NCBI GenBank assembly: GCA_021604105.1
Contig: BQIW01000005.1
Coordinates: forward strand, 12,621-76,620
Source: Nitrospirales bacterium
GTDB taxonomy: Bacteria > Nitrospirota > Nitrospiria > Nitrospirales > UBA8639
Reading direction: 5' to 3'
DNA length: 64,000 nt
Shown: piece by piece, positions 18,438 to 39,166 of the stretch
How positions within the stretch are numbered: position 1 is the first letter of the stretch
How the letters are laid out: each line of letters opens with the position of its first letter
Made by a program: the position numbers and the translations under genes
The notes under the pieces: generated by a model
The model's input: only the letters and a program-made list of their open reading frames with translations
What the model was told of the DNA's origin: nothing
Database searches by the model: none

Positions 18438-18501
18438 TCCCTGCACAGGAACGTCCGCTAGACCATCCTGACCAAACTTGGTCTGGTGATACGTGAAAAC
18501 C

Positions 18502-18873
18502 TTATGGGAGTAAGGACCGCCCAACAATCTGACGGATCCAGGCTAACCACCATGTTTTCCTCGTTTCAAGGGGAATCTCGGGATCAGGATATTCCACCCA
18601 CAGCTCCTGATTCCCAAGATACTGCTCCCCAATAAAGATACGTTGGGTTCGTAATTGCCGATAGCCCCTCTCATGTAACACGTGTATGAGTCCTTGCAGA
18701 ACCTGGTCTTCGGTAGGAACGGGATCAACATCTATCTGAAGCGATTCATAGCGGAGCCGAGCCTGGAATCCTCCTTCACAGGGAATAACATGGACTTGCC
18801 GATTGAACCCACGGTCACGGTCATCCAACCCGGCAACGTGATAAATATGGATGGAAGGAGATGTGGAACTCAT
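18502..18873 (-). CDS. hypothetical protein
   Basis: 123-aa ORF with ordinary composition. I recognise no family and see no clear SD. Confidence 0.35.
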   Translation of the reverse strand: MSSTSPSIHIYHVAGLDDRDRGFNRQVHVIPCEGGFQARLRYESLQIDVDPVPTEDQVLQGLIHVLHERGYRQLRTQRIFIGEQYLGNQELWVEYPDPEIPLETRKTWWLAWIRQIVGRSLLP

Positions 18874-19113
18874 ACGTGTAAAGGTCTATCATACCTCCGT
18901 TTGTTATCATCGCATAAGAGGAAAAAGGCCGTCGAGCCTTCGGAGCCACTTCCAGCTCTTTCGCCTTCGCACACAAATTCTCTTCAGAACTCAGCATGTC
19001 TTCTTCAAAAAGCCGGCGTCCTCGACTGACAACATAGAGCATCAATTTCCGCTGATTCCTCTTGCCTTCACCGGCGTGCTTTTCGTATCGTGGTACTCAA
19101 TGATTGTGACTGA

Positions 19114-22925: not shown

Positions 22926-24518
22926 ATGAAGACGACCGTTCCACAAGCGCTCATACAGAATTTCCTGAACCACACTCCAACCTGGTACAAGCTGACCATT
23001 CTGGGATTCTTAATCCTCAATCCCATCTTATTGATGAGCATTGGGTCGTTTTACACCGGATGGGTTCTCATCCTGGAATTTATTTTTACGCTGGCACTGG
23101 CTCTCAAAAGTTATCCTCTACAACCCGGTGGCTTGCTCGCACTTGAGGCCGTTTTATTGGGGATGACTACACCCGCGACGGTTTATCATGAAGCACTCAA
23201 TAATTTCCAAGTGATCCTGTTATTGATTTTCATGGTGGCCGGAATCTACTTCATGAAAGATTTGCTCTTGTTTCTGTTTACGAAAATTTTATTGGGCGTC
23301 CGTTCAAAAATGTTGTTGGGACTCTTGTTTTCTATCATGGGTTCCTTTCTATCGGCTTTCCTTGATGCCTTGACCGTCACCGCGGTTATCATTGCCGTCG
23401 CGTTGGGTTTCTATAACATTTACCACCGCGTTGCCTCTGGCAAATCGTCTCAAACCTCTCATGATTCGACAAGCGATCACGAAATCGACGCACTTCACAG
23501 GGAAAATTTAGACAATTTTCGAGGCTTTCTTCGCAATTTATTAATGCACGGAGCCGTTGGGACGGCATTGGGCGGAGTCTGTACTCTCGTGGGGGAACCC
23601 CAAAATTTATTGATTGCGGACAAAGCGGGCTGGGAATTTATGGAGTTCTTCTTGCGCATGTCCCCCATAACCCTTCCAGTCTTGGTCACGGGATTGATCA
23701 CCTGCATGATCGTCGAGAAATTACGTTGGTTTGATTACGGCTTTCAACTCCCGGATTCGGTTCGTCTCATTTTGGTAGATTTCGAAACCGAACAACAGAA
23801 ACGACGGGATTCCGGGGACACCGCAAAGCTTATCATTCAAGCGATTGCAGGTATGTGGCTGATTGTGGCCTTAGCCTTTCACCTCGCGGAGGTCGGAATC
23901 ATCGGACTCTCGGTGATCGTGTTTATTACCGCCTTCAACGGGATTATCGAAGAGCATCAACTTGGAGAGGCGTTTAAGGAAGCGCTTCCCTTCACGGCGC
24001 TCCTTGTTGTCTTTTTCGCCATTGTGGCCGTCATCCAGGACCAGAACCTGTTTTCCGGCATCATCGGGTATGGATTGAGTTTGGAAGGATCGTATCAAAT
24101 CGGCATGTTTTACCTGGCCAATGGAATTCTGTCCGCCATCAGCGACAACGTCTTTGTTGCGACGGTTTACATCCAGGAAGTGCTCCGTGCCTTTCATGCG
24201 GGCACCATTACCCGCGATCAGTTTGACCTTTTAGCGGTTGCCATTAATACCGGCACCAATATCCCAAGTGTGGCCACCCCAAACGGACAAGCCGCATTTT
24301 TGTTTTTATTAACCTCCTCGCTGGCTCCGGTAATCCGCTTATCCTATGGGAAAATGGTGTGGATGGCGCTTCCCTATACCTTGACCATGGCGAATGTCGG
24401 CCTGTTTGCCGTGTATTTTTTCTTAGATCCGGCGACGGCATTTCTATACGACACCGGATTCATCCACCATCATAGCTTGACTGACTCAGGCAATCCCACA
24501 GAACCGCTAGCACATTAA
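22926..24518 (+). CDS. nhaB: NhaB-type Na+/H+ antiporter (copy 1)
   Basis: 530 aa. The N-terminus ([21 protein letters not shown]) and overall length and topology match NhaB. Confidence 0.85.
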
Positions 24519-24669: not shown

Positions 24670-25749
24670 TTACCGGGCCAGTGTCGCAACGGCTTCATTT
24701 TCCTGGATAACTCGCTCAGGATAGAGGACTATTTCTACTCGGCGATTTTGGGCTCTCCCCTCCTCGGTCTCATTAGTTGTGACCGGTCGCTTATCGGCAT
24801 AGCCGGTGGCTGAAAATTGCTTTGGATCCATTCCTGTTTGCTCAATCAGATACCGCAAGACTGTGGTGGCCCGTGCGGTTGAAAGTTCCCAGTTCGTCGG
24901 ATACTGTTTTTGCAGCCGGCCATAAATCCGGTGGCTGTCCGTGTGGCCTTCGACTTGGATATTTTTCCCCGGCAAGGTCGCTAACACCTGGCCCACCTGT
25001 TTCATAATCTCGAGCCCCAGGGGAGTCAAATCCGCCTCACCGGAATCAAACAGGACTTGCCCCAACATGGTCAGGACTAATCGGTCATGGTGTTGAGTCA
25101 CCACCAGACTTTTGCCAAATTTATCTTCAAGCGCCTTGGTAATGCGATCAATCTCTTCACCGACTGTGAGCACTTCATACTTGACCTTTGCCAATTGCGC
25201 TTCCTGAGCTTCCCGAGCTTTTCGGACCAGTTCCAATTCATGTTTTAAACGCTCTACCTCTTTGAGCCTGGCCTCCAATGCCGAAAGCTCGTTTTCCAAG
25301 AGCCCATTCTGTTCACGAAGGTGGGACATCTGGCTGATTTGCCCGTTTAAACCGGATCTGACCTTTGCGAGGGCTGCTGCCAAATCATGAAAATCCACCG
25401 GCTCTCCTCCAAAAAGAGGATCGGTCAGAGAAACGGTTCCTTCCGTGTTACCGAGTTTCCGAATTTGCGTATACAACGCTTCGACTTCTTGTTGAACCGC
25501 GGCTAATTGTTCTTCCTTCATTTGGTCTTGCACTTCTACGGTATGCTCGAGGGCCGTCTTCGATTCTTGAAGCTGCATGACTTCAATTTGCTTCTCTTCA
25601 ACAGCCTGCTGCAAGCGTTCGAGTTCCGCTATCGTGGACTCTTGGCTTTTTTCGTATTCCTGCAAAGCACGTTCATGTGATTGCTGACTCACACACCCGA
25701 CCACAACCGTACACGCCATTGCCACAAGTAAAGTGTTGCCCAGTTTCAT
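24670..25749 (-). CDS. OmpA/MotB-family lipoprotein with long coiled coil
   Basis: ATG at 25749 with an AGGAG SD, lipobox VVGC, a ~200-aa heptad-rich region and a C-terminal OmpA-like domain (GHTDS...N.ELS.ARA...NRRVEI). The track ORF is extended upstream. Confidence 0.8.
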   Translation of the reverse strand: MKLGNTLLVAMACTVVVGCVSQQSHERALQEYEKSQESTIAELERLQQAVEEKQIEVMQLQESKTALEHTVEVQDQMKEEQLAAVQQEVEALYTQIRKLGNTEGTVSLTDPLFGGEPVDFHDLAAALAKVRSGLNGQISQMSHLREQNGLLENELSALEARLKEVERLKHELELVRKAREAQEAQLAKVKYEVLTVGEEIDRITKALEDKFGKSLVVTQHHDRLVLTMLGQVLFDSGEADLTPLGLEIMKQVGQVLATLPGKNIQVEGHTDSHRIYGRLQKQYPTNWELSTARATTVLRYLIEQTGMDPKQFSATGYADKRPVTTNETEEGRAQNRRVEIVLYPERVIQENEAVATLAR

Positions 25750-26225
25750 GGTGCCTGCTCCTTCCCCTTCACCGCCTCTTCTCACCCCAGGTTCTCTACT
25801 ATCAATGACACCTGAGAATTCAAGACTGGTTGGTAACTTTGGGCCTATATGGTTTCGAGCCACTCTTCTGGGTGCCATGTTCATCCTTCCGGAGTGACCG
25901 GAGAATTCGTCTACCACCAAAAAGAGCAGAGAAGATTATTCTCGGCATTCCGGATAGGACACTTGAGGAAACCAACAGGAACAAGGAGAAAGTTGCTCAA
26001 AGAGGTCAGAATGGCCGGTCAATATCTCCCAATGAGATCAAATGACACGGTTTCAATTCACAAGGGATAAATAGGAAAAGATAAAAAGGGGAGGAATATT
26101 GGCACGAAGAGTATTGGCCTATGGAAGAGACTTGATCGTCATCACTCTTTCTCACCAACCCAGAGATCTCTCAGAATGGGGCCTTCAGGAGGTCGACTTT
26201 GTCCCTACTGCTGCAGCCTCGTCGT

Positions 26226-27734
26226 TTACCGAAACACCACCTCGTGAACCATGCCAACCTGATATTGAGCCATATGCTGAACCAAATTTGTGACACTGGA
26301 ATCCATCATTTCCATAAGTGGAGACGGGTACAGGCCGATCACCAAAATCAGAGCAGCAAGTGGGATCACGGTGGTCAACTCCCGTATACTCAGATCAGGA
26401 AGTTGTGCAATGGTCGAATTCTTGGGTTGACCCAACACCACCCGTTGGAGCATCCAGAGCATATACGCCGCCGCGAGGACAATGCCCCCCATGGACAACA
26501 ACACCATCATGTAGCTTTCAAAAGATGTTCCGACAAGAACCAAAAATTCTCCAATAAAATTGCACGTGCCAGGCAGTCCGAAGGATGCCACTGAAAACAG
26601 ACAAAAAAGTGCCACAAACCGAGGCATCGATTTTTGCAATCCTCCGTAATCCTGAATCGACCTGCTATGAGTCCGATCATACAATTGACCCACAGCCAAA
26701 AAGAGGGCTCCTGTGGTTATTCCATGATTCACCATCTGCAAGATGGCTCCTTGAATACCATGGTTATTGAACACGAAAATTCCCAATGTTACGAATCCCA
26801 TATGCGAAATGGACGAATACGCCACCAGCTTTTTCAGGTCCGACTGGGCCAAGGCCATATACCCTCCATACACAATAGCCGCCACGGATAGCCACAAGAT
26901 AAACGGAGCAAAGGTCACGGAGGCTTCAGGAAACATGGGGAGACAAAATCGTAGAAATCCATATCCACCCATTTTCAAGAGCACGCCTGCCAACAGAACG
27001 CTACCGGCAGTGGGAGCTTCGGAATGGGCATCCGGTAGCCATGTGTGAAACGGCAACATGGGTAATTTAATGGCAAAGGCCATGAAAAACGCCAGAAATA
27101 TCCAAAACTGGGCGTCAGGGGAATACGTGTTCTCTGCCAACGCTAAAATATCGAATGTCCGCCCCCCTTCCACGTACAACCCGAGTATCGCCAAGAGTAA
27201 GATTAGGCTACCTGACAAACTGTACAGAACAAATTTGATGCCAGCCGCTATGCGTTGGGGCCCCCCCCACAGAATGATCATAAAATACATAGGAATCATT
27301 GTGACTTCCCACAACATGAAAAACAAAAACAGGTCTAGAGCGGTAAACACCACAATCATGGCCCCTTCCACCAACAAAATCATGGCCATAAATGAGCGTA
27401 CACGAGTGGTAATTGACTTCCAGGAGCATAGGACGCAAAAGGGACAAAGCAGAGTCGTGAGTAAAACCAGAAGAAGACTAATGCCATCCACTCCAACAGC
27501 ATATTGAATATTAAAGGTCGGCATCCATGCCATCCGCTCGACGAATTGCATGCCTTGAGTGGAGAAATCAAATTCTCTCAAAAGCACGAGTGCAAGAACC
27601 CCATCCCCCAGCGTACACCCTAGAGTCACGCGCCGAATCCATTCCTGATTCTGTATACAAGCGATAATCCCAATGCCTAAAAACGGCATCGCAATCATGA
27701 TACTCAAAAGATGTTCAGTGAAGATTGTGTTCAT
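26226..27734 (-). CDS. NuoM/MrpD-like proton-pumping antiporter-type subunit (PF00361-like)
   Basis: 502 aa with ~14 TM and conserved WLPDAH.EAPT..SV.LA motifs. Confidence 0.85.
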   Translation of the reverse strand: MNTIFTEHLLSIMIAMPFLGIGIIACIQNQEWIRRVTLGCTLGDGVLALVLLREFDFSTQGMQFVERMAWMPTFNIQYAVGVDGISLLLVLLTTLLCPFCVLCSWKSITTRVRSFMAMILLVEGAMIVVFTALDLFLFFMLWEVTMIPMYFMIILWGGPQRIAAGIKFVLYSLSGSLILLLAILGLYVEGGRTFDILALAENTYSPDAQFWIFLAFFMAFAIKLPMLPFHTWLPDAHSEAPTAGSVLLAGVLLKMGGYGFLRFCLPMFPEASVTFAPFILWLSVAAIVYGGYMALAQSDLKKLVAYSSISHMGFVTLGIFVFNNHGIQGAILQMVNHGITTGALFLAVGQLYDRTHSRSIQDYGGLQKSMPRFVALFCLFSVASFGLPGTCNFIGEFLVLVGTSFESYMMVLLSMGGIVLAAAYMLWMLQRVVLGQPKNSTIAQLPDLSIRELTTVIPLAALILVIGLYPSPLMEMMDSSVTNLVQHMAQYQVGMVHEVVFR

Positions 27735-27868
27735 AGTCTCCCCTTCATGACATGCCGATCACGGCACATCCAGGACATGAAAGACGCCCTCTCGTTTTTC
27801 ACGCACCCCGAGCTGAAATTTCAGTGTCGTGTTCGTTCCCTTTAATCACTGACAAACTATCTGCAGAG

Positions 27869-30046
27869 TCACACGACAAGCCAAAACAACAACCCAATCC
27901 CCACAATGAGCCAGAATATCATGACCAGTAAGTGGTGCTGTAACGTGCGGGGTTCCATTTCCTGCATCATATTCCCTGTGCTCGCTGCTTGATTTCCGGC
28001 ACGAATCACGTTCTTATCGAGAACTCTAATCTCGATTCTTTTCCATAACCAGTTGGCGATACCTAGGCTGCGTTGGCCGATACCCACGACGACCCGATCG
28101 ACACCACGAAGGTCCACCACCCGCCAAAGCCAACCGGCCATTCCTACGCTGTTCCGTCCCAAGCCTACTACCAGCCCGTCAATCCCCCGAAGGTCCACGA
28201 CCCGCCACATCCACTTTGCCGCCGCCACCGACACATTTGCGATTCCCATGATCATGGCGTCAAACACATTCCGGTCGACAACTCGCCAGAGCCATCGGGC
28301 CAACCGGAGGGTGGGCACCACAACATACGCATCATATATTTCGTCAAAATACAATTTATTCAGAAAGTGGACATACCATCGCTTACTCATTTTCGATTGT
28401 TGAAACCAGGAACCCGAAAATTTTGTCAAGGAAAAGTACCCAACTGCGATACCGCCTACTGCCACAGCCAATGCAACAATAAGTTGCAAGCCGGTCTCCC
28501 TCGAAGTGTGCCTCTGAATCGGAGCCATCCGATGTCCCACGACAGGGGAAAGAAATTCCGAAAACCAACTCCACAAGACCAGCAACAGGCTTCCAAACAT
28601 TCCAATGACAAACAAGATTCCCAGAAGATGGATGGGGGAAAAGAAGCGCGGCTTCATGGCCTGCTTTCCCATTCCACTTCCATAGCCTGTCGAAAGCGGT
28701 TCACCAAACAACACCAGCACACCCCGCATGACATACATGGATGAGAAAAATACTGTCAGAAATCCCAGAATCCAAAACGTCCATTGGGCTGAGGATCCCG
28801 GTTGAATCATCCACAATTGCTCATACGGCCCGAAAAAAATCAGGAACGGGGGAAGGCAGGCCAACAGCAGAGCTCCTAGCACTAAAGGCCCCATAGAAAG
28901 CATTGAGGACCCACGACGAGCAAGCGACGAAGGCGCATGCCCATGGGAGCCAACGGAACGAAGTGCATTTCCCGTCGATAAAAATAAGAACCCCTTTAAA
29001 CAGCCATGGGCCAACATATGAAAAATCGAGATGACAAAGGCTCCGACTCCGCAGGTCATGATCATGAAACCGATTTGACCAATGGTGGAAAACGCCAGCA
29101 TGCGCTTAATATCAACCTGAGTCAGGGAAACAAGGGTTGCAAAAAGTGCTGTCATACCCCCGATAACCGCAATGACAGTCATGGCTTCTGGCGAAAGTAT
29201 CACGAGGGGACTCATGCGAACCAACAAAAAGGGGCCCGCATTCACCATGGTCGCGGCGTGAATCAACGCGGAAACAGGGGTGGGCGCTTCCATGGCAAAG
29301 GGGAGCCAGACATGGAATGGCACTTGTGCGGATTTTCCCATGGCTCCCAGGAAAAGAAACAGTGTAATGAGAGTCAGGATGTGAATGGGCACGTCCACCC
29401 CCAGCCAGCCGAACAGATTGATGGTATTTCCCTGGAGCGATGGAGCTTCCGCTAAAATGGTCTGGATATCGAGTGTTCCAAAAATGGAATAAGTCAGAAT
29501 GATTCCAAAACCTAAGCCCACATCCGCGACCGAATTCACGAGAAAGGCCTTGGTCGCGGCTTGAGCCGATGATTGCCGCTCCCCCCAATGAGAAATTAGC
29601 AAATAAGAACAGATACCCATGATCTCCCAGAACACAAACATCATGAGCAGATTATTGCTCAAAACCAGCATGATCATGGCGAACGTAAACAGGGCAATGA
29701 CCGCAAAAAAACGATTATACCGGGGATCGCCGATCATATAACGCGACGCATACACATGCACCACGCTGCTCACACCAGTCACCAAGAGCAGGAGCAACAC
29801 CGTGAGCTGGTCGATGTAGAGACCCAAATCTACAATCAGGTCTCCCGATTTCATCAATCGATAGAGAGGAATGGAGAACGCCCCGTCAGTTGCCACTTGA
29901 GCAAACGCGATAGCGGAAAAAGCGAAAGAGAGGGCCATGGCAGGGATGCCGATCTTATGGCCTTGCTCTCCCAGCCAGGGTTTTCCCAGCACGAGAACCA
30001 GAACGGCCATCAGAGGAAGGAGGGGAATAAGGATGAGGAATGTCAT
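27869..30046 (-). CDS. NuoL/MrpA-like antiporter-type subunit with expanded lateral-helix region
   Basis: 725 aa with HVWLPFAMEAPTPVSALIHAATMV and a FDEIYD segment followed by repeated W.WRVVD units and a final TM. Confidence 0.85.
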   Translation of the reverse strand: MTFLILIPLLPLMAVLVLVLGKPWLGEQGHKIGIPAMALSFAFSAIAFAQVATDGAFSIPLYRLMKSGDLIVDLGLYIDQLTVLLLLLVTGVSSVVHVYASRYMIGDPRYNRFFAVIALFTFAMIMLVLSNNLLMMFVFWEIMGICSYLLISHWGERQSSAQAATKAFLVNSVADVGLGFGIILTYSIFGTLDIQTILAEAPSLQGNTINLFGWLGVDVPIHILTLITLFLFLGAMGKSAQVPFHVWLPFAMEAPTPVSALIHAATMVNAGPFLLVRMSPLVILSPEAMTVIAVIGGMTALFATLVSLTQVDIKRMLAFSTIGQIGFMIMTCGVGAFVISIFHMLAHGCLKGFLFLSTGNALRSVGSHGHAPSSLARRGSSMLSMGPLVLGALLLACLPPFLIFFGPYEQLWMIQPGSSAQWTFWILGFLTVFFSSMYVMRGVLVLFGEPLSTGYGSGMGKQAMKPRFFSPIHLLGILFVIGMFGSLLLVLWSWFSEFLSPVVGHRMAPIQRHTSRETGLQLIVALAVAVGGIAVGYFSLTKFSGSWFQQSKMSKRWYVHFLNKLYFDEIYDAYVVVPTLRLARWLWRVVDRNVFDAMIMGIANVSVAAAKWMWRVVDLRGIDGLVVGLGRNSVGMAGWLWRVVDLRGVDRVVVGIGQRSLGIANWLWKRIEIRVLDKNVIRAGNQAASTGNMMQEMEPRTLQHHLLVMIFWLIVGIGLLFWLVV
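27989..28294 (-). repeat. 3.8 tandem copies of an 81-bp / 27-aa unit inside the NuoL-like gene
   Basis: WLWRVVDRNVFDAMIMGIANVSVAAAK / WMWRVVDLRGIDGLVVGLGRNSVGMAG / WLWRVVDLRGVDRVVVGIGQRSLGIAN / WLWKRIEIRVLDKNVIRAGNQ (aa 585-686). Confidence 0.9.
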
Positions 30047-30075
30047 ATCAGCAGTACACCATATACCCGATCCTA

Positions 30076-31545
30076 CTACAGCCCTGGTGGAACCGCGTTC
30101 TTGAGGAGAAAGTTGACAATGTGATCGCTCATCAGTCCCAAAACAATGACCGCCACTGACGTAGCGCCGAGACCAATTTGAACCGCCAACGGAATTTCAC
30201 GGATGAGAGGAGACTGCTGAGCTGACCGGTCCCGAAACACTCGTTCAAATACTTTCACGAAGTAAGCCAGAGTTAACAGAGTCGCAATTAACACCGCGCC
30301 AATGGCAAGATAGTTCTGCGCTTCCACCGCGCCAAGAATGATATACCATTTTCCAAAAAATCCCCCGGTTGGAGGAATCCCGATCATCGACAGGGCTATA
30401 ACCACCAGGGCAACAGACATCCATCCCGCTCCTCCTTGTGATCGCCCAAGATCCTCAATCGTCCGAACTCCATACAGATGAATTATTGCCCCCGCCCAAA
30501 AAAACAATCCCGCTTGCATCACGGCATCATTCAAAAGATAAAACACTCCTCCGACAAAACCTGTTTGATTTCCGAGACTAATCCCCACCAGAATCAATCC
30601 GATATGCGAAAGCCCTCCATACGCAAACATCCGCTTAATTTCTACCTGGGACAGAGCCAGAAATGCGCCAACCAGAGCTGCAAGAGCACCCAACAGTCCC
30701 ACTAAAAACAGGATAGGGATCTGGTAGACCACTGCCTGAGCTCCGAGCACCCAAAACATAATGCGAATCCATCCATACAACGCGACCTTGGTCACTAACG
30801 AGGCCAGGATGGGTGACACTCTGTCTGGCGCATACGTATACGCATCCGGCAACCACCCATGGAGGGGCACCAAAGCCATCTTGATGCCCAGCCCAATGAA
30901 CATGAATAACACCCCAACCGCAAGGGCCTTAGACGTCACCAAAGGGGGCACCCGCTGAGCCAGATCTGCCATGTTGAGCGTACCCGTCTCGGCGTACAAA
31001 TATCCCACTCCCAGCAGATACAAGGAGGCTCCGAAGGTACCTAAAATTAAATACCGGAATCCGGCGACAAGAGCCTTCCCACCACCCAACCCGACCAAGG
31101 CATAGGCGCACAGGGCGGATACTTCTAAAAAAACGAATAGATTGAACAAATCACCGGCAAACACCATGCCGGTCAAGCTGGCTATCAATAATAAGACCAG
31201 GGTATAAAATGGGACAATCCGGCTACCGAGGTAAGGAAACAGGGCAGAACTGAGGAAGGTGATACACACCAATCCGACGAGACTCAAAGCCACGGTCATG
31301 ACACTGGACAAGCCGTCCGCCACCCACTCAATCCCGACCGGAGCGGCCCATCCCCCAAAGTCATAATGAATGGTCCCGCTTTGAAGAACTCCCACCAGAT
31401 TAGCGAAAGAGACCGGGACCATCGCCCCCAGCACGCCAATCGATAATGGCCGACACCACTCTCGATGCTTGATCCCGATTAGTGGTAAACCAATGGCCAA
31501 ACTGAGAGGTAAGAGGAAAAGAATTGCTGGAAGGTGTCGCGTCAT
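30076..31545 (-). CDS. mrpD: MrpD/NuoN-like antiporter-type subunit (PF00361-like)
   Basis: 489 aa, polytopic, with LHGWLPDAY. Its start overlaps the mrpC-like stop. Confidence 0.8.
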   Translation of the reverse strand: MTRHLPAILFLLPLSLAIGLPLIGIKHREWCRPLSIGVLGAMVPVSFANLVGVLQSGTIHYDFGGWAAPVGIEWVADGLSSVMTVALSLVGLVCITFLSSALFPYLGSRIVPFYTLVLLLIASLTGMVFAGDLFNLFVFLEVSALCAYALVGLGGGKALVAGFRYLILGTFGASLYLLGVGYLYAETGTLNMADLAQRVPPLVTSKALAVGVLFMFIGLGIKMALVPLHGWLPDAYTYAPDRVSPILASLVTKVALYGWIRIMFWVLGAQAVVYQIPILFLVGLLGALAALVGAFLALSQVEIKRMFAYGGLSHIGLILVGISLGNQTGFVGGVFYLLNDAVMQAGLFFWAGAIIHLYGVRTIEDLGRSQGGAGWMSVALVVIALSMIGIPPTGGFFGKWYIILGAVEAQNYLAIGAVLIATLLTLAYFVKVFERVFRDRSAQQSPLIREIPLAVQIGLGATSVAVIVLGLMSDHIVNFLLKNAVPPGL

Positions 31546-31922
31546 TCCAGCCTTTTGAGAATTTCTTCTTCGTCCAGGCTGCCGTATTTTTTATAAATGG
31601 CATCGGCCAACGCCAACGATACTCCAAGGGTGGCGACACCCACCACAATCGCCGTCAATGTCAGCACATGAGGGAGAGGATTCGCATAGACTTCTGGTTG
31701 AACGGTCTCGGTAGTGGAGAGCAAAATGGGCACCGTGGCACCTCGCTTGGCACTGGTGGTGACGAGGAAAAAGATCACACTTGTTTGCATGAGATACATC
31801 CCGATAAGTTTTTTCACCAGATTGTACCGGGTCACCATAATATAGATACCCCACAGAAACAGCAGGACAAAGGCAATGTAGTTGGGGCGCTGCAGCCACC
31901 CCCCGATCATCTCAAACATCAT
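31542..31922 (-). CDS. mrpC: MrpC/NuoK-like subunit
   Basis: 126 aa with 3 TM. The call rests on NuoK/MnhC-like size and position. Confidence 0.75.
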   Translation of the reverse strand: MMFEMIGGWLQRPNYIAFVLLFLWGIYIMVTRYNLVKKLIGMYLMQTSVIFFLVTTSAKRGATVPILLSTTETVQPEVYANPLPHVLTLTAIVVGVATLGVSLALADAIYKKYGSLDEEEILKRLE

Positions 31923-32361
31923 ATTCCTGCTCGGTATCGTGATAGGCCAAGCTGAGAACGATGGAGATCCCTGTTACCGCAACATCCACGGCCACGCCGA
32001 TTTGTGCCAGCAGAATCCCCGTATACCGACGTGCAGGAGCATCCAAACCCGGAATTTCCAAATTGGCATAGTTCAGAAATTCCCCACCTCCAATGAGACA
32101 TAAGCCACCCACTCCCACAAAAATAATCAATCCGATCCCATCGCCATGCAAGACCTTTTCCACCAAACGTCCCTGAGGTGACTTCAGCCCAAATACCAAA
32201 AAAGCCAGGATCATACTCGTCGTCCAAATGACGCCGGCCACAAACCCTCCTCCCGGGCCGTACTGGCCGAAGAACAAAACGTACAGGGCAAACAACTGCG
32301 CCAGAGGAATGAGCAAACGACTCATGGTCTGAACGATGATGCTGTCGTGGATCTGTTTCAT
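31912..32361 (-). CDS. mrpB: MrpB-like subunit (MnhB domain, C-terminal part)
   Basis: 149 aa with the GQYGPGGGFVAGV motif typical of the MnhB domain. Confidence 0.7.
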   Translation of the reverse strand: MKQIHDSIIVQTMSRLLIPLAQLFALYVLFFGQYGPGGGFVAGVIWTTSMILAFLVFGLKSPQGRLVEKVLHGDGIGLIIFVGVGGLCLIGGGEFLNYANLEIPGLDAPARRYTGILLAQIGVAVDVAVTGISIVLSLAYHDTEQEYDV

Positions 32362-32891
32362 GAGCCTGGCTCCCGTAATAACAAGGCACAGGCAATGCCG
32401 GCGGTAAATATCACCACGGTCTCAATCAACGTATCAAATGCCCGATAGTCCATCAGCACCGAGGTGACCACATTCGGCGTGAGCGTGTCCGCAAAGCTAT
32501 TCTGTAAGTACAGAGGAGAAATGTGCACGTTGGGCGGAGAGGTTGGGTCACCAAACTGAGGAAGATCATTCGCCGCTAATAATAACAGAATGCCCAACAA
32601 CGGCAATCCGAGCACTCCAGCAAGAGGAGGAGGGGGACGACGAAGGCGGCTATCCTTTGGAGCGGTATCAAACAACGTAATAAGAAACAACACGGTGGCC
32701 AACCCGGCCCCAATCACGGCCTCCACAAACGCCACATCCACCGCACCCAGCCAGGCCCAAACCAGGGACAGGAAGAAACTATACGACCCGAGGATAAACA
32801 CTGAACTCATCAATTCCTTGACCAAAAAGGTCGCGCTTGCCGCCGTCAGAACCAAAAGTAACAGCAAGGCAATATTCACGGAATACATCAT
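32358..32891 (-). CDS. DUF4040/MbhD-like plus MnhB N-terminal-type subunit
   Basis: The start at 32891 (MMYSVNIALLL) overlaps the mrpG stop. It contains VVTSVLMDYRAFDTLIE, typical of MnhB. The track ORF is extended upstream into mrpG. Confidence 0.6.
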   Translation of the reverse strand: MMYSVNIALLLLLVLTAASATFLVKELMSSVFILGSYSFFLSLVWAWLGAVDVAFVEAVIGAGLATVLFLITLFDTAPKDSRLRRPPPPLAGVLGLPLLGILLLLAANDLPQFGDPTSPPNVHISPLYLQNSFADTLTPNVVTSVLMDYRAFDTLIETVVIFTAGIACALLLREPGS

Positions 32892-33187
32892 TGGTCTTCC
32901 TCCGTCTGAGGTTTGAGGCCGGCCCGATACGCGGCTCGAACGGTTGCATGAGCGATGACCGGATTCAACAGCATGAGCAAGACCAGGACGACCAGAATCT
33001 TCAGCATATTGATCCCGAAACCCTGGTACAGAGCAAGGCCCGCGAGGACACAAATCGCGCCCAGGGAATCGGTCAGGGAGACCGCATGGGATCGCGAAAA
33101 CACGTCGGGGAGGCGTATCGTGCCAATTGCAGCCACCACAAGGAAGAAGATCCCCACCAGAATTAACCCGATGGCAAGAACGACCAT
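32888..33187 (-). CDS. mrpG: MrpG-like subunit
   Basis: 99 aa with the GTIRLPDVFSRSHA motif typical of MnhG/PhaG. Confidence 0.8.
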   Translation of the reverse strand: MVVLAIGLILVGIFFLVVAAIGTIRLPDVFSRSHAVSLTDSLGAICVLAGLALYQGFGINMLKILVVLVLLMLLNPVIAHATVRAAYRAGLKPQTEEDQ

Positions 33188-33457
33188 TTAGGGTGTCCCT
33201 CGTTGCTCAAGAAATTTGGCAATAGCAAATGCCCCCACCAGGTTTAGAAGCGCATATCCCGTAGAGATGTCCACAAACATCTCCACACGGTCATAGACTG
33301 TTCCCATGACGACCCCCAGAATGATGGCTTTGGTCGAAATTCCCGCTAATCCTAATACCCGATCAAACACCGTGGGACCCTGAATCACCCGGTACAAATA
33401 CACGAGGATCAGAAATGACAAGGTAATTAACAAAAATAGAAAGAAATCAATCATCAC
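33188..33457 (-). CDS. mrpF: MrpF-like subunit
   Basis: 89 aa with 3 TM and an MnhF/PhaF-like sequence (DRVLGLAGISTKAII). Confidence 0.75.
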   Translation of the reverse strand: MMIDFFLFLLITLSFLILVYLYRVIQGPTVFDRVLGLAGISTKAIILGVVMGTVYDRVEMFVDISTGYALLNLVGAFAIAKFLEQRGTP

Positions 33458-33945
33458 AAATTCGTGTCTTCCTGAAAGACCCAGGCAAGTTTGCGCTCCA
33501 TCCGGCCGGTGGTAAAATCATTCCCTGCTGACTCATCTATGGCATGCACGAGGAAAGTATTGCCGTTGATTTCAACCGTAATAGTACCTGGCGTGAGGGT
33601 CACAGAATTCCCAAGCACAACGATCGCGCCCCGATGTTTTAATTGAGACCGGTAGGTGATAAGTCTGGGCTTAATGGGTAACGAGGGATTCAGAATGAGT
33701 TTCGTCAAATGTAGACTACTCTCCACAATCCGTAAAAAGAGCCAGGGGCAGTACAGCACCATACGGCCCCATGGGAATTGCTGAAAGGGAGAATGAGGGA
33801 ACCCCGTATTTAACCATGCGACTCCGCAAGAGGCCGTGAATCCGAGAACGAGGTGAAAATTGTCGTACTTCCCTGACAACACAAGCCAGCCACAAAATAA
33901 GGCCAAGGTGTTAGCGACAAACTGTTTGGGAAAAGAAGATTTCAT
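33454..33945 (-). CDS. mrpE: MrpE-like subunit
   Basis: 163 aa with the SVTLTPGTITVEI motif typical of MnhE. Confidence 0.8.
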   Translation of the reverse strand: MKSSFPKQFVANTLALFCGWLVLSGKYDNFHLVLGFTASCGVAWLNTGFPHSPFQQFPWGRMVLYCPWLFLRIVESSLHLTKLILNPSLPIKPRLITYRSQLKHRGAIVVLGNSVTLTPGTITVEINGNTFLVHAIDESAGNDFTTGRMERKLAWVFQEDTNL

Positions 33946-34002
33946 TCTATATTATCTTCAGATCAAAACCTGAACGGCTCGAATCACCAAACCCGATAAA
34001 AT

Positions 34003-34059
34003 ATAAAAAAAGCCAACCAAATGTTTTTCGAATGAGGTGTTCAAAAAACCTGGTTGGCT
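34003..34059 (-). terminator. intrinsic terminator (hairpin element A) between dabA and mrpE
   Basis: On the minus strand: AGCCAACCA...TGGTTGGCT (9-bp outer stem, further inner pairing GTTTTTTGAA/TTCGAAAAAC) followed by TTTTTTTATAT. Confidence 0.6.
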
Positions 34060-34430
34060 TGTACTGTCTCCAGCCAATCGGAACTAACCAAATGCCGGGA
34101 ACCCTACTGCCATGATGAATAATATTTCGGCACACCGGATGCTACCACTCTTCCGACTCAGCCTGCGCCAAATAAAAAAATGGGCCTCATCCTTTTGAAC
34201 AATCTGCAAGCCTCCGACCTTATACCAGGCACCCTCTTCCCTCCACAACTCCGAATCAAAGAGATAGGTTCGACTGGAGTCGTTTAACCTACCTGCTGGG
34301 GGCTGCTTGGACCTGTAAATGGAAACGAAAGCCCTAAGGAATACTCATCCCACGTGGGAGATGATAGGAGTTTCGATCAGGAATTCAAAGCACGGCAGAA
34401 GTCAAAAAGTCGTTCATTCGTATCGTCAAA

Positions 34431-37400
34431 TCATATGTTCATCGTAACCGGTTCCCAGGTGAAGTCAGAGAGATACCGAGAAAAGCTTTTGGAGCCCGGA
34501 TCAAACGCGACGACATGCATCCATTGGTTATGGAAAACATGTTGAAGCAAATCGTGCTTCTGAATGATGCACCGTATTCGATCCGGCGGCGCCTCAATGA
34601 TGGCAAGTAAGCGCATGGGTTCATGGTAGTGCCGTGCCCCATCGTTTACCGATTGAAGGGGAAGGCCTTTTTGCAGGTCACTTTGGCTCCCTAACATCAC
34701 ACCAACTCCGGCAACCATATTGTGAATGACCTTGCTTCCGCTCCCAAAAGCCCAGGGATCCACAGCCGAAAAGTAATAGGTTAAGTTAATCAATTCGCCC
34801 ACGATGAGAGGTGCGGTCATGATTTTTTCAAGAAGGCCCCCATCAGGATCCGAACCAGGGTCATAAGAATGCAAAAAGACTCTCCCTTCCAAATCTAGAC
34901 CTTTTGTAAGAGCCCGCCTGCCAATCAAAAATGCAGCATTCCCTGACAATCCCCATTCAGGACGCGAATTAGCCCAATCCATGCTCCGTTGCCTGACATG
35001 CTTAAATGCATCACGGGGAGACACCCCTGTGGGAGCCCCTGGAATTCGCCGGCATCGCTCCAATGCCTGATTGGTGCCAGCCTTCTCCAAGTCCTTCACC
35101 AACAGTGCTAAATCCTCTACATGGGTAGCTGGAATATCCTCAAGGTCGTACAACGTCACTCGATCCGTAGTCGTGTTGTGTTTGGCGGGAAGAAACCAGG
35201 TATCTTCCGGAATGACCAAATTGTGATCGTTCAGAATTTTCCGGACCTCCGGATTATTCGCCATAGCCGAAAAAACCCGGGCATTTGGATCACCATGACT
35301 TCCTCCACAGGCGCCACAATCCAAGGCCGCATAATAGGGATTATTATCTGACTGGCTTCCATGGCCGCAGACCATCACAAACCGGCCAAACTGTTTCGTC
35401 AGTCCGATCACACGCAACCCGCCTTCCACGAAGGCCGCTTGTTCCAAAATGGTGAAGCCTCGCGTCAACTCTCCCAGACGCTTCCTTGCCTGCGTGTCTT
35501 CACTGGAAGGCTCAACAGGAATTTGTGTGGCCACGGTGTTCCCGAGTCCTCTGTGTACCCACCGTTTAATTGTGTCGAAGGATGTTCGAAACAGGGTTTT
35601 TCCTAACAACCCGACGCTAAAAAACATCCCCAGCACATCAATTAACAAAAAAGAAGCAAATGGGTTGTGCTTCAGATCATGAAAGAGGTGATGACTGAGT
35701 TGGTGCCACCTGGTGCCGGAGAGATAGTCTTTCACATTATCATTCTGCCCGACTCGCGGCATTTCACTGACTTCCGCTGTGGGTGTCAATAAAATGGGAC
35801 ATAACGCCAGGTAGTCGTGGCTATCAAAACCCACATAACTCATGGGCACCCCAAAGAATCCGGCATATCCAAACGTTTCGTACGGCCCCTGGTCCTCAAG
35901 ATGACGACGAAAGGACTCTGAGCGCGCATCGATACAAAAAATCCCTTGCCCCCGAGGCCGGTCATTAATAACTGGGGCCGCGGTTTGATGCCCGCTGATG
36001 GTCTTCAATAGTTGCTCCCGATAGACCTCTTCATACGCATCTAGCCATACCGGCCCATGCGCAGATTCAGGAAAAAGATCCAGCCATTCCAGTAATGTGG
36101 AAACGTCGGTTTGAGATAATTCGTGGACCTCAAAGAGAGTCAATTCCAAAAACTGAGCCAGGTGAAATATGCGCCAAGCCTGACGACACACCCCATCAAT
36201 ATAAGGGTCGGTCGTGTGAGAAGAAAGACGGCGCAACGCTTGTTCATCCTCACCAAGTTTGTTCCAATGGTCTAGCAGAGCAGGCAATGTCCCCTTGATC
36301 CCCCATTCACGTTGGCAGAGTCCCTCCACCATTCCCGATTCATAAAAAAGCCGAACGGCGAGATATTGCAAGGGATCGATGGGGTAGTCTGCTTGTGCAG
36401 GATATCCGGTATGGTCTCCACGCCAACGGATAAATCCCGCCCATCCAGGTAATTGCGCCAGATGTCGCGACAGATACTCTCGCCATCGATCCTTCGGAAT
36501 ATTGAGATCCTGCAAATGTCTGCACAGCATCTCCTCTGGGGAATCAGACAATTCGCGGAACTTTTGTCGAAGATGGGGAATCCCGAGAAATCTGCCTGAG
36601 AGATCCCCTTGCGCGAGTTCACGCCAGGCAGCATAGAAACCCTTTTCTCTTTCAGGCATGCTCCATCCGGCAACCCCCTCGTCAACAAATGCCGCAACCC
36701 ACTTGATCATGTGCGTATTGATGGTCCCAACGATCTCGCTCCCCGTCACACGGTCCAGCCAATCACCCAGCGTTCTGTTGGTAGGTAAATCAACCGGGAC
36801 CGAATGAGCCTCTTCCCTTAAGAAATTTGATCTTCGACTGAGAGCAGATGCATGAGAAGGAGACGTACCCAACAACGGGTCAGCCAATTGACAAGCCTCC
36901 AACGAACTTTTCCAGAGGTTGTGCAGATAGGCGAATTCCGGATCATGCCGGCACTTCTCGCACTCACGGATCATGCGGTCAATAATCGTTGTGCGAGAAT
37001 CCTGCGGAACATCGGATCGGAAACGAGTTGTTGCACCTTCTAATTCTATCATCCAGGAATGAAGGACAGGATTGAGCTCTTCAATGCCGTAAATGGCATG
37101 AATCCTCCAAATGTCTCTCACATGAATGGCACGTCCACAAATTTGGATGGTCGCGGGAGAAGGAAGTGGAGGCCCCACTTGCCGAAGAGCCTGTTCGAGA
37201 GCCCCCGGAGTAATTCGGCCTTGATGAAAAAATTGGCGGTACTCTTCAACAGGCAAAAATCCCTTGGCACCCAACAACTGATTCGCCGCCTCAATCGCAC
37301 GGCGAAATGGTAAATGCTCGAGATCCCGAATGGGGTTGTAGTAGGCAAATGTTTTCATCGGCCAATACGGCCCTATAGGCTGAGAGGCCTCCACAACGAT

Positions 37401-37457
37401 TTCTCGCAGCCATTTCCAATTTGTCACGGTTGAACGATCTTGCTCTACGTTGAACAT
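34431..37457 (-). CDS. dabA: DabA (DUF2309), putative inorganic-carbon pump / vectorial CA subunit
   Basis: 1008 aa with the N-terminal PIGPYWPMKTFAYYNP signature, FCIDARSE (C508-x-D510-x-R512) and VCGHGS...ALDCGACGG (H699, C714). Confidence 0.9.
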   Translation of the reverse strand: MFNVEQDRSTVTNWKWLREIVVEASQPIGPYWPMKTFAYYNPIRDLEHLPFRRAIEAANQLLGAKGFLPVEEYRQFFHQGRITPGALEQALRQVGPPLPSPATIQICGRAIHVRDIWRIHAIYGIEELNPVLHSWMIELEGATTRFRSDVPQDSRTTIIDRMIRECEKCRHDPEFAYLHNLWKSSLEACQLADPLLGTSPSHASALSRRSNFLREEAHSVPVDLPTNRTLGDWLDRVTGSEIVGTINTHMIKWVAAFVDEGVAGWSMPEREKGFYAAWRELAQGDLSGRFLGIPHLRQKFRELSDSPEEMLCRHLQDLNIPKDRWREYLSRHLAQLPGWAGFIRWRGDHTGYPAQADYPIDPLQYLAVRLFYESGMVEGLCQREWGIKGTLPALLDHWNKLGEDEQALRRLSSHTTDPYIDGVCRQAWRIFHLAQFLELTLFEVHELSQTDVSTLLEWLDLFPESAHGPVWLDAYEEVYREQLLKTISGHQTAAPVINDRPRGQGIFCIDARSESFRRHLEDQGPYETFGYAGFFGVPMSYVGFDSHDYLALCPILLTPTAEVSEMPRVGQNDNVKDYLSGTRWHQLSHHLFHDLKHNPFASFLLIDVLGMFFSVGLLGKTLFRTSFDTIKRWVHRGLGNTVATQIPVEPSSEDTQARKRLGELTRGFTILEQAAFVEGGLRVIGLTKQFGRFVMVCGHGSQSDNNPYYAALDCGACGGSHGDPNARVFSAMANNPEVRKILNDHNLVIPEDTWFLPAKHNTTTDRVTLYDLEDIPATHVEDLALLVKDLEKAGTNQALERCRRIPGAPTGVSPRDAFKHVRQRSMDWANSRPEWGLSGNAAFLIGRRALTKGLDLEGRVFLHSYDPGSDPDGGLLEKIMTAPLIVGELINLTYYFSAVDPWAFGSGSKVIHNMVAGVGVMLGSQSDLQKGLPLQSVNDGARHYHEPMRLLAIIEAPPDRIRCIIQKHDLLQHVFHNQWMHVVAFDPGSKSFSRYLSDFTWEPVTMNI

Positions 37458-37653
37458 TGCCCCTCTTTCTACTTTTTCAACAGTACAGACATCTCATAGC
37501 GTCAAATCAAGATTTAAAGGATCCATTGGTGCTCTTACCGGTTAAAATAACGGGAATCAGGGTGAAATGGCAGAGGGAAAAACCTGACAAGACCATGCAC
37601 CCAACTCATGAGATTTAAGTTAATTTAGCAGCGTGCAAAAATCTCTATTTTCA

Positions 37654-37714
37654 ATAAAAAAGCCAACCGATAGGTGTCTCCTCTTTCCAGTTACAGGAGA
37701 TTACTCGGTTGGCT
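37654..37714 (-). terminator. intrinsic-terminator-like hairpin (element B) upstream of dabA
   Basis: On the minus strand: AGCCAACCGA...TCGGTTGGCT (10-bp stem, inner TCTCCT/AGGAGA pairing) followed by TTTTTTATTG. The stem and flanks resemble element A. Confidence 0.5.
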
Positions 37715-37975
37715 TATTCTATCGCGTACCTCAGTCACACAGTGAATGATGCAGGCGATCCGACAAACCCGTTCTACGATCAAGGTCAAAACCAGCACAG
37801 ATACCACCCTCCTCAGACATTCGAGGAGAAGTTCATTCTCTTCTTGACCTCCCTTGAACAATACGCTTATATCAGGGGGATACGCTGTTCCTCAAGTTCC
37901 TGTGATTTTATTTGGGGAATGTGCAAGAATCCGGAATGGATGGATAAGATTGCTCTTGCCAGAAAGCGTCACCGC

Positions 37976-38347
37976 ATGAAACGCACCGTCACTCGAGGTG
38001 AAATGGAATCGGCGATCCGGAATGCCATCATTAAATTTGAACAGGAATTCATGGGTCGCGGCCCCACCGATGTTCGGGCCAGCATTCTACGCGATACCAT
38101 CCTCATTCGGCTCAGAGGCGTTCTTACGCCAGCCGAACGCCAGCTGGCTAAGAGTGAAGAAGGCATTGGAATGGTCAAACAGATGCGCCAAAATCTCATC
38201 TCCCAAGGAAGAGAGCAACTGTGTCGTGAAATGCTGGAGATCACCGGTGCAAAAACAACTGCCCTGTTTACGGATATCGATACCCGGATCGAAGAACGCA
38301 TCATCGTCCTGACTTTAGATCGTGATTTGGAAGCGACATTCCGGTAA
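37976..38347 (+). CDS. DUF2294 protein (MpsC-like)
   Basis: A 123-aa version from the ATG at 37976. RGEMESAIRNAIIKFEQEFMGRGPTDVRASILRDTILIRLRGVLTPAERQLA matches the DUF2294 pattern as I recall it. The track ORF (37709, TTG) is probably an extension. Confidence 0.65.
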   Translation: MKRTVTRGEMESAIRNAIIKFEQEFMGRGPTDVRASILRDTILIRLRGVLTPAERQLAKSEEGIGMVKQMRQNLISQGREQLCREMLEITGAKTTALFTDIDTRIEERIIVLTLDRDLEATFR

Positions 38348-38437: not shown

Positions 38438-39166
38438 TTGAATGGACAGAAAAATTTAAGCCTTGACTTCCCAGAGATTTGCCTTATCTTTGAAAGTATG
38501 AAAGAACAACGTGTTTTAACCCATGATGAAAAAAAAGCTTCTGAGGCGGCCTTTCGAGGATTGCCGATGAATGATTCGTGGACGGATTCCGCTAAAGCCG
38601 TCTATGTGGGTCTTCTTCAAGCATTAGGGAAGACTCCTTTGAACGATCCTATTCATTCAGAAAGTGAACACACCCAGTCTCCGGAAAGATCGGATCTTTT
38701 GCCTTCAGATCTCTCTGAAGCGTCCCAATCGACTCTTTCACTCAGTTCAGGGGATATCCCTGCTGAATTTGAATCACTCCCGATCCGATCCCGAAAGGAA
38801 GCCATTGAGTCCGGGATCCTCAAGGATGTCACTTCAACTGCCCAAAGCGTAGGCTTGGACTTCTGTGTGGGCATGACCAACCCCCTTTGGGATCAATTCA
38901 TCACGTCTTCACCGGATTTTACAGAAGAACGTATTCAAACCCGCTTGCGCGATACACTGGTTGCGGTACGCCTCCGATTAGCCAGCCTGAAAACACCAAC
39001 GGCACTGGTCGATGTTCCCGTATTATTGCAGTTCCCCCCGGAACCGACTCCGCAGCTCTGCTTAACCTTCGCACTATTTCACAAGGATCCGGTTGATGGC
39101 GATTGCCTGCTTTTGATTCATCCAGGCGAGGTCTTCGCCACCCGTCAAGCATTTGAGAATAATTAA
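38438..39166 (+). CDS. hypothetical soluble protein (start uncertain; ATG at 38498 is an alternative)
   Basis: 242-aa ORF with a Ser/Glu-rich middle. I recognise no family. Confidence 0.4.
   Translation: MNGQKNLSLDFPEICLIFESMKEQRVLTHDEKKASEAAFRGLPMNDSWTDSAKAVYVGLLQALGKTPLNDPIHSESEHTQSPERSDLLPSDLSEASQSTLSLSSGDIPAEFESLPIRSRKEAIESGILKDVTSTAQSVGLDFCVGMTNPLWDQFITSSPDFTEERIQTRLRDTLVAVRLRLASLKTPTALVDVPVLLQFPPEPTPQLCLTFALFHKDPVDGDCLLLIHPGEVFATRQAFENN

Follow-up and report, generated by a model that had tools for sequence, protein, structure and literature searches.

Introduction

The locus described here raises the question of which membrane partner serves DabA when no dedicated DabB is encoded beside it. 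It lies in a 64-kb stretch of DNA from a metagenome-assembled genome (MAG) of the nitrite-oxidising Nitrospirales; we call the whole stretch the window. On the minus strand, dabA stands with a nine-gene Mrp-like cluster that contains three PF00361 genes, and a PF10057 gene diverges from dabA; these genes had been listed in a first-pass annotation of the sequence, and every one of them was confirmed when we assigned gene families by Pfam search. We believe that the locus encodes a multi-subunit, cation-coupled CO2-hydration system in which DabA uses the Mrp-like arm as its membrane partner, and we put the probability of this reading at roughly 0.55. That dabA and the entire Mrp-like cluster are linked in function or regulation we regard as very likely; physical docking of DabA on the multi-subunit arm is, in our judgement, slightly better than an even proposition.

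DAB and Mps systems are now understood as vectorial carbonic anhydrases (CAs) driven by the proton motive force and built of two or three subunits, and the coupling of ion flow to CO2 hydration is an open question. The DAB papers of 2018-2026 describe two- or three-subunit complexes. The premise of the first-pass annotation, that DAB is a two-component system, is outdated, as DAB1 is a heterotrimer of DabA, DabB and DabC (bioRxiv 10.64898/2026.05.01.722082). In the cryo-electron microscopy structure from T. albus, DabC mimics half of NuoM, and according to the same study DabA always works with a PF00361 partner. The COGNAT study of 2017, which predates the discovery of DabA function and does not mention Mrp genes, found that some ybcC/COG3002 operons have extra membrane subunits (SulP, NuoM) and speculated that several ions are translocated (PMC5700660). 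In Candidatus (Ca.) Nitrospira alkalitolerans, Daebeler et al., 2020 showed this locus with bicA, nhaB, motB and two additional NuoL/NuoM-like genes, called it a 'group 3 Mrp antiporter' and interpreted it as a haloalkaline adaptation, with no mention of the DUF2309 gene (PMC7784846). In the literature on DabA/DUF2309 together with Mrp, Nitrospira or riboswitches, we found no paper that ties DabA to a full Mrp-like module or describes the RNA leader reported below.

dabA stands with an Mrp-like module and complex-I-type NuoL and NuoM genes

According to Pfam and NCBIfam, the cluster encodes MrpE, MrpF, MrpG, the C-terminal domain of MrpA, MrpB, MrpC and MrpD. The N-terminal domain of MrpA is replaced by two separate genes of complex-I type, one for a NuoL that passes TIGR01974 and one for a NuoM that passes TIGR01972 (Table 1). 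Neighbouring genes abut or overlap from mrpE through mrpD. Two gene models were revised. The first of what had been taken for two MnhB-type genes is of the MrpA-C-terminal/DUF4040 (MbhD/E) type by both Pfam and NCBIfam; it starts at about 32891 and not at 33053, NCBIfam NF009159 matches from residue 55, and its counterparts are 176-180 amino acids long in the gene calls of eight related loci (L082-L089; loci are cited by such numbers where they need to be told apart). The MpsC open reading frame at 37709-38347 is too long at its 5' end and likely starts at 37976 (or 37940); relatives in the gene calls of L085 and L089 measure 122-132 amino acids. Beyond the MrpD-, NuoL- and NuoM-type genes, no other PF00361 or DabB gene was found in the 64-kb window, and in the same interval there was no adjacent DabB-clade PF00361 gene of ~550 amino acids lacking the lateral helix.

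The linkage of dabA to the cluster is conserved over at least five phyla

We scanned a DabA alignment against one genome per GTDB species and annotated the resulting 80 loci by tblastn with the window proteins. They comprise ~53 loci of Nitrospirales/Nitrospirota, 13 of Nitrospinota, 5 of Planctomycetota, 6 of Acidobacteriota (mostly Bryobacterales), 1 of Binatia and 2 from MAGs of doubtful label, and outside the window's own clade their DabA proteins are 52-58% identical to that of the window. Among the 74 loci that extend at least 1 kb downstream of dabA, mrpE follows in 73; of the 61 whose sequence continues for 8.5 kb or more, 59 have the NuoL- and NuoM-like genes in the conserved order. 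The idea that DabA belongs with the module would have had little to commend it if Mrp-like clusters of relatives never neighboured dabA; they do so almost throughout, and this conserved gene order excludes a chance juxtaposition of dabA and the mrpE cluster. The cluster contains no NuoH-, NuoB-, NuoC-, NuoD- or NuoI-type genes, either in the window or in the 80 loci.

The two units are also often close to each other. The spacing between dabA and mrpE is below 100 nucleotides in 18 loci, and independent gene calls give an overlap of 4 nucleotides in L087 and a gap of 3 nucleotides in L089. Several lineages thus show the two genes coupled in translation or with overlapping frames, and fusion into one operon is seen in several phyla. 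In L089, dabA through nuoM form a single operon. A few loci have inserts of 2-4 kb between dabA and mrpE; we considered these as extra subunits and rejected them, as the genes are unrelated (a helicase or an HtrA-type protease). A SulP-family gene, ~25% identical to the BicA-like SulP of the window, lies directly upstream of dabA on the same strand in 34 of 65 loci, and a divergent MpsC gene is found in 28 of 65, all of them Nitrospirales. As a reverse test, we started from homologues of the NuoL-like protein, without reference to DabA, and retrieved eight loci, six of which have a long dabA directly upstream. The link between dabA and the cluster is therefore very strong, but not absolute.

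A leader RNA is shared by the mrpE, dabA and sulP units and by canonical DAB operons

Within the window's clade, the gap of 485 nucleotides that separates dabA from mrpE is conserved in its nucleotide sequence. It holds a promoter-like element that is nearly invariant in 13 relatives, followed by a structured leader with two stems and a long terminator hairpin. This hairpin, with its T-run on the minus strand, had been noted in the first pass as separating dabA from mrpE; it is real, although a consensus terminator scan missed it owing to its long, interrupted stem. It is not, however, a mark of independence of the two genes, since the leader for which it serves as expression platform is common to both units.

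A covariance model built from the mrpE leader (R1) and searched against the window and 84 loci gave 70 full-length, same-strand matches, of which 33 lie just before mrpE, 24 before a long dabA and 11 before the sulP gene of the cluster. The core of the leader reads GTAGGGTnnCTG...CAGnnACAGTAC-AAGCCAACC...GGTTGGCTTTTTT. In an alignment of 46 matches, 89% of cells are paired and 42 of 48 pairs show a compensatory change, with a covariation score of 0.36 against at most 0.10 in slid controls, this alignment having been fitted to the model itself. The copy upstream of dabA in the window overlaps the stretch by which the MpsC reading frame was called too long at its 5' end; at the orthologous site, relatives reach as much as 59 bits (L026 9731-9920), L089 likewise has a leader before dabA, and further copies are found at L023 7462-7642, L165 1771-1933 and many other places. 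No R1 leader was found before the OmpA/MotB-like, nhaB and BicA-like sulP genes of the window.

The company that the leader keeps was confirmed by an unbiased scan of metagenome contigs for the exact pattern GTAGGGT...CAGTACAAGCC, filtered with R1, which yielded ~36 true instances. The identifiable downstream genes were a canonical DAB1-type dabB in at least 18, mrpE in 5, a long dabA in 3 and a cluster-type sulP in 3, and no unrelated downstream gene was identified among them. As the leader is common to the mrpE unit and to bona fide DAB operons, the Mrp-like module belongs in an inorganic-carbon-uptake regulon. The leader is a candidate riboswitch or protein-dependent attenuator. No Rfam match was found at the gathering threshold over the whole window or at E<=10 in the gap, and the known riboswitch families for Na+, Li+ and other ions are ruled out as its identity by the lack of any real match. 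A conserved leader peptide in the gap was also rejected, since the reading frames are conserved in neither length nor frame. In addition, the first ~170 nucleotides after the dabA stop (34260-34430, minus strand) are conserved among close relatives (for example, TTTTTGACTTCTGCCGTGCTTTGAATTCCTGATCGAA), and L004 and L005 have a clean deletion of ~76 nucleotides inside this stretch.

DabA retains its catalytic residues and the NuoL-type protein resembles DabB

DabA of the window is 100% identical to NCBI NPIRA03_04470. It matches PF10070 with 854.9 bits (cut-off 25) over profile positions 3-747 of 747 and the DabA2 structure (PDB 9rd0_A) with an E value of 1.7e-109. The pattern C508-I-D510-A-R512 and H699...C714, pointed out in the first pass, is present, and these zinc ligands and the Asp-Arg dyad (C508, D510, R512, H699, C714) do not vary among 28 homologues, the most distant of them 54% identical, and align with the active-site residues of DabA2. 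The T. albus DAB1 structure defines as DAB-specific the motifs GI(A/G)GFFG, NNPYxxALDCGACGG and DW(xxx)RPEWGL together with a membrane elbow (bioRxiv 10.64898/2026.05.01.722082). The window protein has GYAGFFG at 530-536 (the lid), NNPYYAALDCGACGG at 705-719 and DWANSRPEWGL at 827-837; L837, which closes the last of these, is the Leu that replaces the usual bicarbonate hydrogen-bond donor and disfavours HCO3- binding. A helical hairpin at ~583-638 with a hydrophobic stretch at 600-618 is, by predicted secondary structure, the counterpart of the membrane-inserted elbow. AlphaFold2 monomer models had a mean pLDDT of 64 for DabA and 62 for the NuoL-like protein, too weak for work on folds or interfaces, and were used for secondary structure only. 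Judged by sequence, DabA, which keeps its zinc ligands, its lid, the motifs for contact with DabB and a hydrophobic elbow, looks like a competent beta-CA-like catalytic subunit in need of a membrane partner.

The three PF00361 proteins differ in what they resemble. The MrpD-type protein has its best PDB matches in MrpD (7qru_D, 2e-57) and in subunit H of MBS and MBH, and retains the Glu of transmembrane helix (TM) 5 and the Lys of TM7, TM8 and TM12. The NuoM-type protein matches PDB NuoM at 9e-132, retains all proton-path residues of NuoM (E144, K234, K265, H322, H348, E407) and, with 63-80% identity in loci outside the window's own clade, varies least among the proteins of the cluster. The NuoL-type protein matches Nad5/NdhF1/NuoL at 1e-84, MrpA at 1e-40 and DabB2 at 1e-32. 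It is 40% identical to the canonical DabB1 of L024, against 25-27% for the other two PF00361 proteins. It also retains the proton-path residues of TM5, TM7 and TM11 (E, D178, K229, H254, H334, H338, K342). In TM12, Lys399/Asp400 of NuoL are replaced by Tyr408/Glu409, both invariant in 33 orthologues; DabB, too, lacks the TM12 Lys, with His at the K399 position. From these features the NuoL-type protein is likely the equivalent of DabB. Unlike DabB, it has a long amphipathic lateral-helix region and a C-terminal TM helix. The lateral-helix region (residues ~585-692) is made of four exact 27-residue repeats, WLWRVVDxRGxDxxVxGxGxxSxGxA. Orthologues have two to five copies, which gives length classes of ~671, 696-703, 722-725 and 751-755 amino acids with the same gene content in the cluster. 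The repeat is seen at the protein level only, and Tandem Repeats Finder found no DNA-level repeat in the 3' region of the gene.

A model for DabA on a complex-I/Mrp-type arm

Based on these observations, we propose the following model. DabA, without a dedicated DabB, would pair with the NuoL-like subunit of a membrane arm of the complex-I/Mrp type, in which the order may be NuoL-like, NuoM-like, MrpD, then MrpC/B/A-C-terminal and MrpEFG. We place DabA at the NuoL-like/NuoM-like end because DabA of DAB1 sits on DabB, which is NuoL-like, and on DabC, which is half a NuoM; as DabC aligns structurally with the NuoM helices beside NuoL, the proposed geometry of DabA, NuoL and NuoM has a precedent. 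Ion flow through the arm would drive the vectorial conversion of CO2 to HCO3-. The three antiporter-like subunits would carry H+, and the module of small Mrp subunits possibly Na+; many carriers live in marine or alkaline settings, where ΔpH is small and coupling to Na+ would help. The operon of many genomes also includes a gene for a SulP anion transporter, and in Nitrospirales the sulP, dabA and mrpE-nuoM units each have a copy of the leader with its terminator, through which they would be switched together. The first-pass proposal of DabA with a full Mrp-type module thus stands as far as functional coupling is concerned, through synteny in at least five phyla, overlap of dabA and mrpE and the shared leader; docking on the arm is the part that we advance with reserve. 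A wider version, in which the system is a hitherto unrecognised member of the complex-I/Mrp superfamily with DabA as peripheral catalytic module for redox-independent, H+/Na+-coupled CO2 hydration in nitrite oxidisers of sea and land and in several further phyla, in which DAB1 and DAB2 are reduced derivatives or relatives, and in which the regulon is switched by a new riboswitch-like leader reporting inorganic carbon, is attractive but tentative, and we would place it somewhat short of even odds.

One complex or one regulon

Several observations weigh against a single complex. The PDB score of the NuoL-type protein is higher for Nad5/NdhF1 of complex I (288 bits) than for DabB2 (117 bits). In a neighbour-joining tree it groups with DabB1 proteins, with E. 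coli NuoL outside, in 98 of 100 bootstraps, but the tree is small and includes one canonical NuoL only, so that the grouping is tentative. The His and Arg after TM11 of DabB (H328/R331 in T. albus) contact a loop of DabA (bioRxiv 10.64898/2026.05.01.722082); the corresponding positions, His+12/Arg+15 after the TM11 Lys, are kept in DabB of L024 and are Arg/Gly in the NuoL-type protein. Moreover, L082 and L086, two of the eight NuoL-anchored loci, retain the Mrp-NuoLM cluster and the leader before mrpE and lack a long dabA. Both have a DAB1-type dabB within 6 kb: L086 has a divergent DAB1-type operon, sulP-STAS/dabB/x/dabA, in place of the long dabA, and in L082 (Ca. Nitronereus thalassa, JAQOUE010000001.1 3011436-3033526) a LysR gene takes the upstream place of sulP-dabA and a DabB1-type gene lies 4 kb away. 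Conversely, in L019 a long dabA is followed by an HtrA-type protease and there is no cluster within 10 kb. Such loci indicate that dabA and the cluster can become separated or be lost, and that the module may work without long DabA.

Such facts are what one would expect if the two were linked in function but physically separate. The nine genes would then be a cyanobacterial-type (group 3) Mrp Na+/H+ machine, whose Na+ export or H+ import supports Na+-dependent HCO3- uptake by SulP and the pH balance while inorganic carbon is taken up; DabA would pair with the NuoL-like protein alone, as a minimal DabAB-like unit, or with a DabB encoded elsewhere, and the leader and operon would reflect a common regulon instead of one complex. 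The frequent SulP gene directly upstream fits this. So does the Synechocystis mnh/Mrp-like operon with NdhD5/NdhD6, which is in the low-CO2 regulon of NdhR and is proposed to provide the Na+ drive for SbtA, acting apart from the uptake system by cycling Na+ for HCO3- symport (PMC4390856), and Daebeler et al., 2020 read the Ca. N. alkalitolerans locus as cooperation of Mrp, BicA and NhaB (PMC7784846).

We nevertheless favour DabA on the arm. In complex I and Mrp, the lateral helix and the C-terminal TM helix clamp neighbouring subunits. Given that this is so for the NuoL-like subunit in every solved relative, such that a DabA bound there would be on the complex, that long DabA stands without a dedicated DabB in 73 of 74 loci, that overlapping reading frames of dabA and mrpE argue for stoichiometric co-production, and that the NuoL-like protein has lost the TM12 Lys as DabB has and as MrpA and NuoL have not, we regard a separate Mrp machine as a serious rival but the less likely arrangement. 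The first-pass annotation had also held that a canonical dabB next to another copy of dabA would speak against the idea. Canonical DAB1 operons do adjoin the cluster in three loci (L024 13047-19673, minus strand; L042 2807-9396, plus strand; L086 1-4834, minus strand), and encode a DabB of ~565 amino acids, a protein of 358-409 amino acids without a Pfam match and a DabA of ~1082 amino acids; those of L024 and L042 add PII, and that of L086 has SulP-STAS and CBS. Their presence beside the cluster indicates two distinct paralogous systems. In some Nitrospirales and Nitrospinota, a canonical DAB1 operon and the DabA-Mrp cluster together form an inorganic-carbon 'island'.

In a further alternative the direction would be reversed, and the complex would generate a membrane potential or Na+ gradient, with favourable CO2 hydration, or the interconversion of HCO3- and CO2, expelling cations for energy or pH homeostasis and not for the acquisition of carbon. 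This direction was reportedly first proposed for MpsABC of S. aureus, and an MpsC gene (PF10057) adjoins dabA in Nitrospirales. The COGNAT authors likewise proposed that an exergonic reaction powers ion export by multi-subunit YbcC operons (PMC5700660), and the cluster is also found in heterotrophic Planctomycetota and Acidobacteriota. However, all experiments on DAB and MpsAB show an energy-consuming accumulation of inorganic carbon that is abolished by uncouplers, L837 is retained in DabA, and the leader is common to canonical dabB operons; we therefore consider a reversed direction improbable. Least probable of all is a standard Mrp Na+/H+ antiporter that serves salt and alkali tolerance and has no functional tie to its neighbour dabA, as genome papers on Nitrospira and Nitrospina annotate it (PMC7784846, PMC3578206) and as the NhaB and BicA-like SulP genes nearby might suggest, for it is at odds with the synteny over at least five phyla, with the overlapping genes and with a leader otherwise found only at DAB and sulP genes.

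Comparison with related systems

The DabA-Mrp locus shares with DAB1 a PF10070 DabA with the same zinc site, lid, elbow and NNPY..LDCGACGG and DW...RPEWGL motifs, a proposed NuoL-related partner without the TM12 Lys, and a second membrane protein at the position of NuoM. In contrast to DAB1, this partner is a full NuoL with lateral helix instead of a DabB of ~560 amino acids, the protein at the NuoM position is complete and by its residues apparently proton-competent instead of a half-size, inert DabC, seven further Mrp genes are present, and the His/Arg contact residues of DabB are not conserved. DAB2 of H. neapolitanus, a DabA2-DabB2 heterodimer (PDB 9rd0), has a homologous DabA with the same catalytic residues, but its DabA2 measures 827 amino acids and is joined by a single DabB2 of 551 amino acids, which the 725-residue protein of the window matches only distantly. 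Like MpsABC of S. aureus, the locus combines genes for a NuoL-like protein, DUF2309 and DUF2294 (MpsC), and all three Pfam families are present; however, Mps has one membrane subunit and no small Mrp subunits, whereas here mpsC is divergent and restricted to Nitrospirales and the membrane part comprises nine genes.

Cyanobacterial NDH-1MS/MS' (NdhF3/D3/CupA and NdhF4/D4/CupB) has a vectorial CA at the NuoL/NuoM-type distal end of the arm, which is where DabA would dock, but CupA and CupB are unrelated to DabA, and NDH-1 is redox-driven with a quinone (Q) module, whereas the cluster has no NuoH/B/C/D/I-type genes. The Synechocystis mnh operon (slr2006-slr2013, NdhD5/NdhD6) is similar in combining a group-3-type Mrp with extra NuoL/M-like subunits and in being co-regulated with inorganic-carbon uptake; it differs in having no DabA or Cup gene and in being controlled by a LysR repressor where the loci described here have an RNA leader. 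A LysR gene occurs in some non-Nitrospirales loci, for example L084. Finally, the genes follow one another as in mbhA-H, in the order E-F-G-(A-Cterm D/E)-B-C-D, and as in MBH, MBS and Mrp an Mrp module would be joined to a peripheral catalytic module. Here the latter would be a non-redox carbonic anhydrase, and NuoL and NuoM are added.

Neighbouring genes

A conserved hypothetical gene, hyp242, accompanies the cluster. It lies beside mpsC in the window's clade and directly after the NuoM-like gene in other (marine) Nitrospirales (L016, 11702-12373; L017, L020, L026, L028, L029 and L031; L083, 13821-14492; and others). Its product has no Pfam, NCBIfam or PDB match and may be an accessory subunit or regulator. 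Downstream of nuoM there are OmpA/MotB-like, nhaB and BicA-like SulP-STAS genes; Fig. S8 of PMC7784846 depicts the same neighbourhood in Ca. Nitrospira alkalitolerans. Near the cluster, at 17058-20892 (plus strand), are two further genes, one HD-GYP-like (DUF3391 + HD_5) and one for a multi-GAF-domain protein, and a DUF3391/HD_5 gene is also near the cluster in L085; there may thus be second-messenger signalling near the cluster.

Table 1. Features of the locus, with positions in the window; features read on the minus strand as RNA or promoter are given in the direction of transcription
Feature	Position	Strand	Assignment or remark
BicA-like SulP-STAS gene	21016-22725	+	downstream of nuoM
nhaB	22926-24518	+	downstream of nuoM
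OmpA/MotB-like gene	24670-25920	-	downstream of nuoM; syntenic in most close relatives
NuoM-type subunit, 502 aa	26226-27734	-	PF00361
NuoL-type subunit, 725 aa	27869-30046	-	PF00361
MrpD-type antiporter-like subunit, 489 aa	30076-31545	-	PF00361
mrpC (NuoK-like, Oxidored_q2)	31542-31922	-	PF00420
mrpB (MnhB)	31912-32361	-	PF04039
MrpA-C-terminal-domain-like gene (MbhD+MbhE, DUF4040; NuoJ-related), 177 aa	32358-32891	-	PF13244+PF20501
mrpG (MnhG)	32888-33187	-	PF03334
mrpF	33188-33457	-	PF04066
mrpE (MNHE)	33454-33945	-	PF01899
Terminator hairpin, long, with T-run	34060->34011	-	RNAalifold; ends 60 nt before mrpE start
Structured RNA leader before mrpE, ~190 nt (stems P1, P2, then terminator)	34198->34006	-	RNAalifold; R1 211 bits
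Promoter-like element TTGTGG-N18-TATAAG (extended -10 TGnTATAAG)	34248->34219	-	before mrpE leader; read from sequence
dabA, 1008 aa	34431-37457	-	PF10070, E 8e-257
Leader copy upstream of dabA	37847->37656	-	covariance model R1, 26 bits, E ~1e-3
MpsC/DUF2294-like gene, divergent from dabA	37976-38347 (revised start)	+	PF10057, E 9e-35
hyp242, conserved hypothetical, ~220-240 aa	38498-39166 (or 38438-39166)	+	tblastn

Significance

If the proposed model is true, DabA on a three-antiporter Mrp/complex-I arm would be a new peripheral module for the complex I superfamily, and DabC could be placed in evolution as a remnant of NuoM. The leader is a candidate regulatory RNA dedicated to the uptake of inorganic carbon and provides an independent handle on the regulon. 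Among the carriers, Nitrospirales and Nitrospinota are the chief oxidisers of nitrite in the ocean, in soil and in wastewater, and they fix carbon by the reductive tricarboxylic acid cycle and not by Rubisco. Their uptake of inorganic carbon has hardly been studied, and genome papers call these genes a salt/alkali Mrp antiporter. For these organisms, an arm-bound DabA could explain how CO2 capture is energised in alkaline or marine water where ΔpH is small, possibly via Na+.

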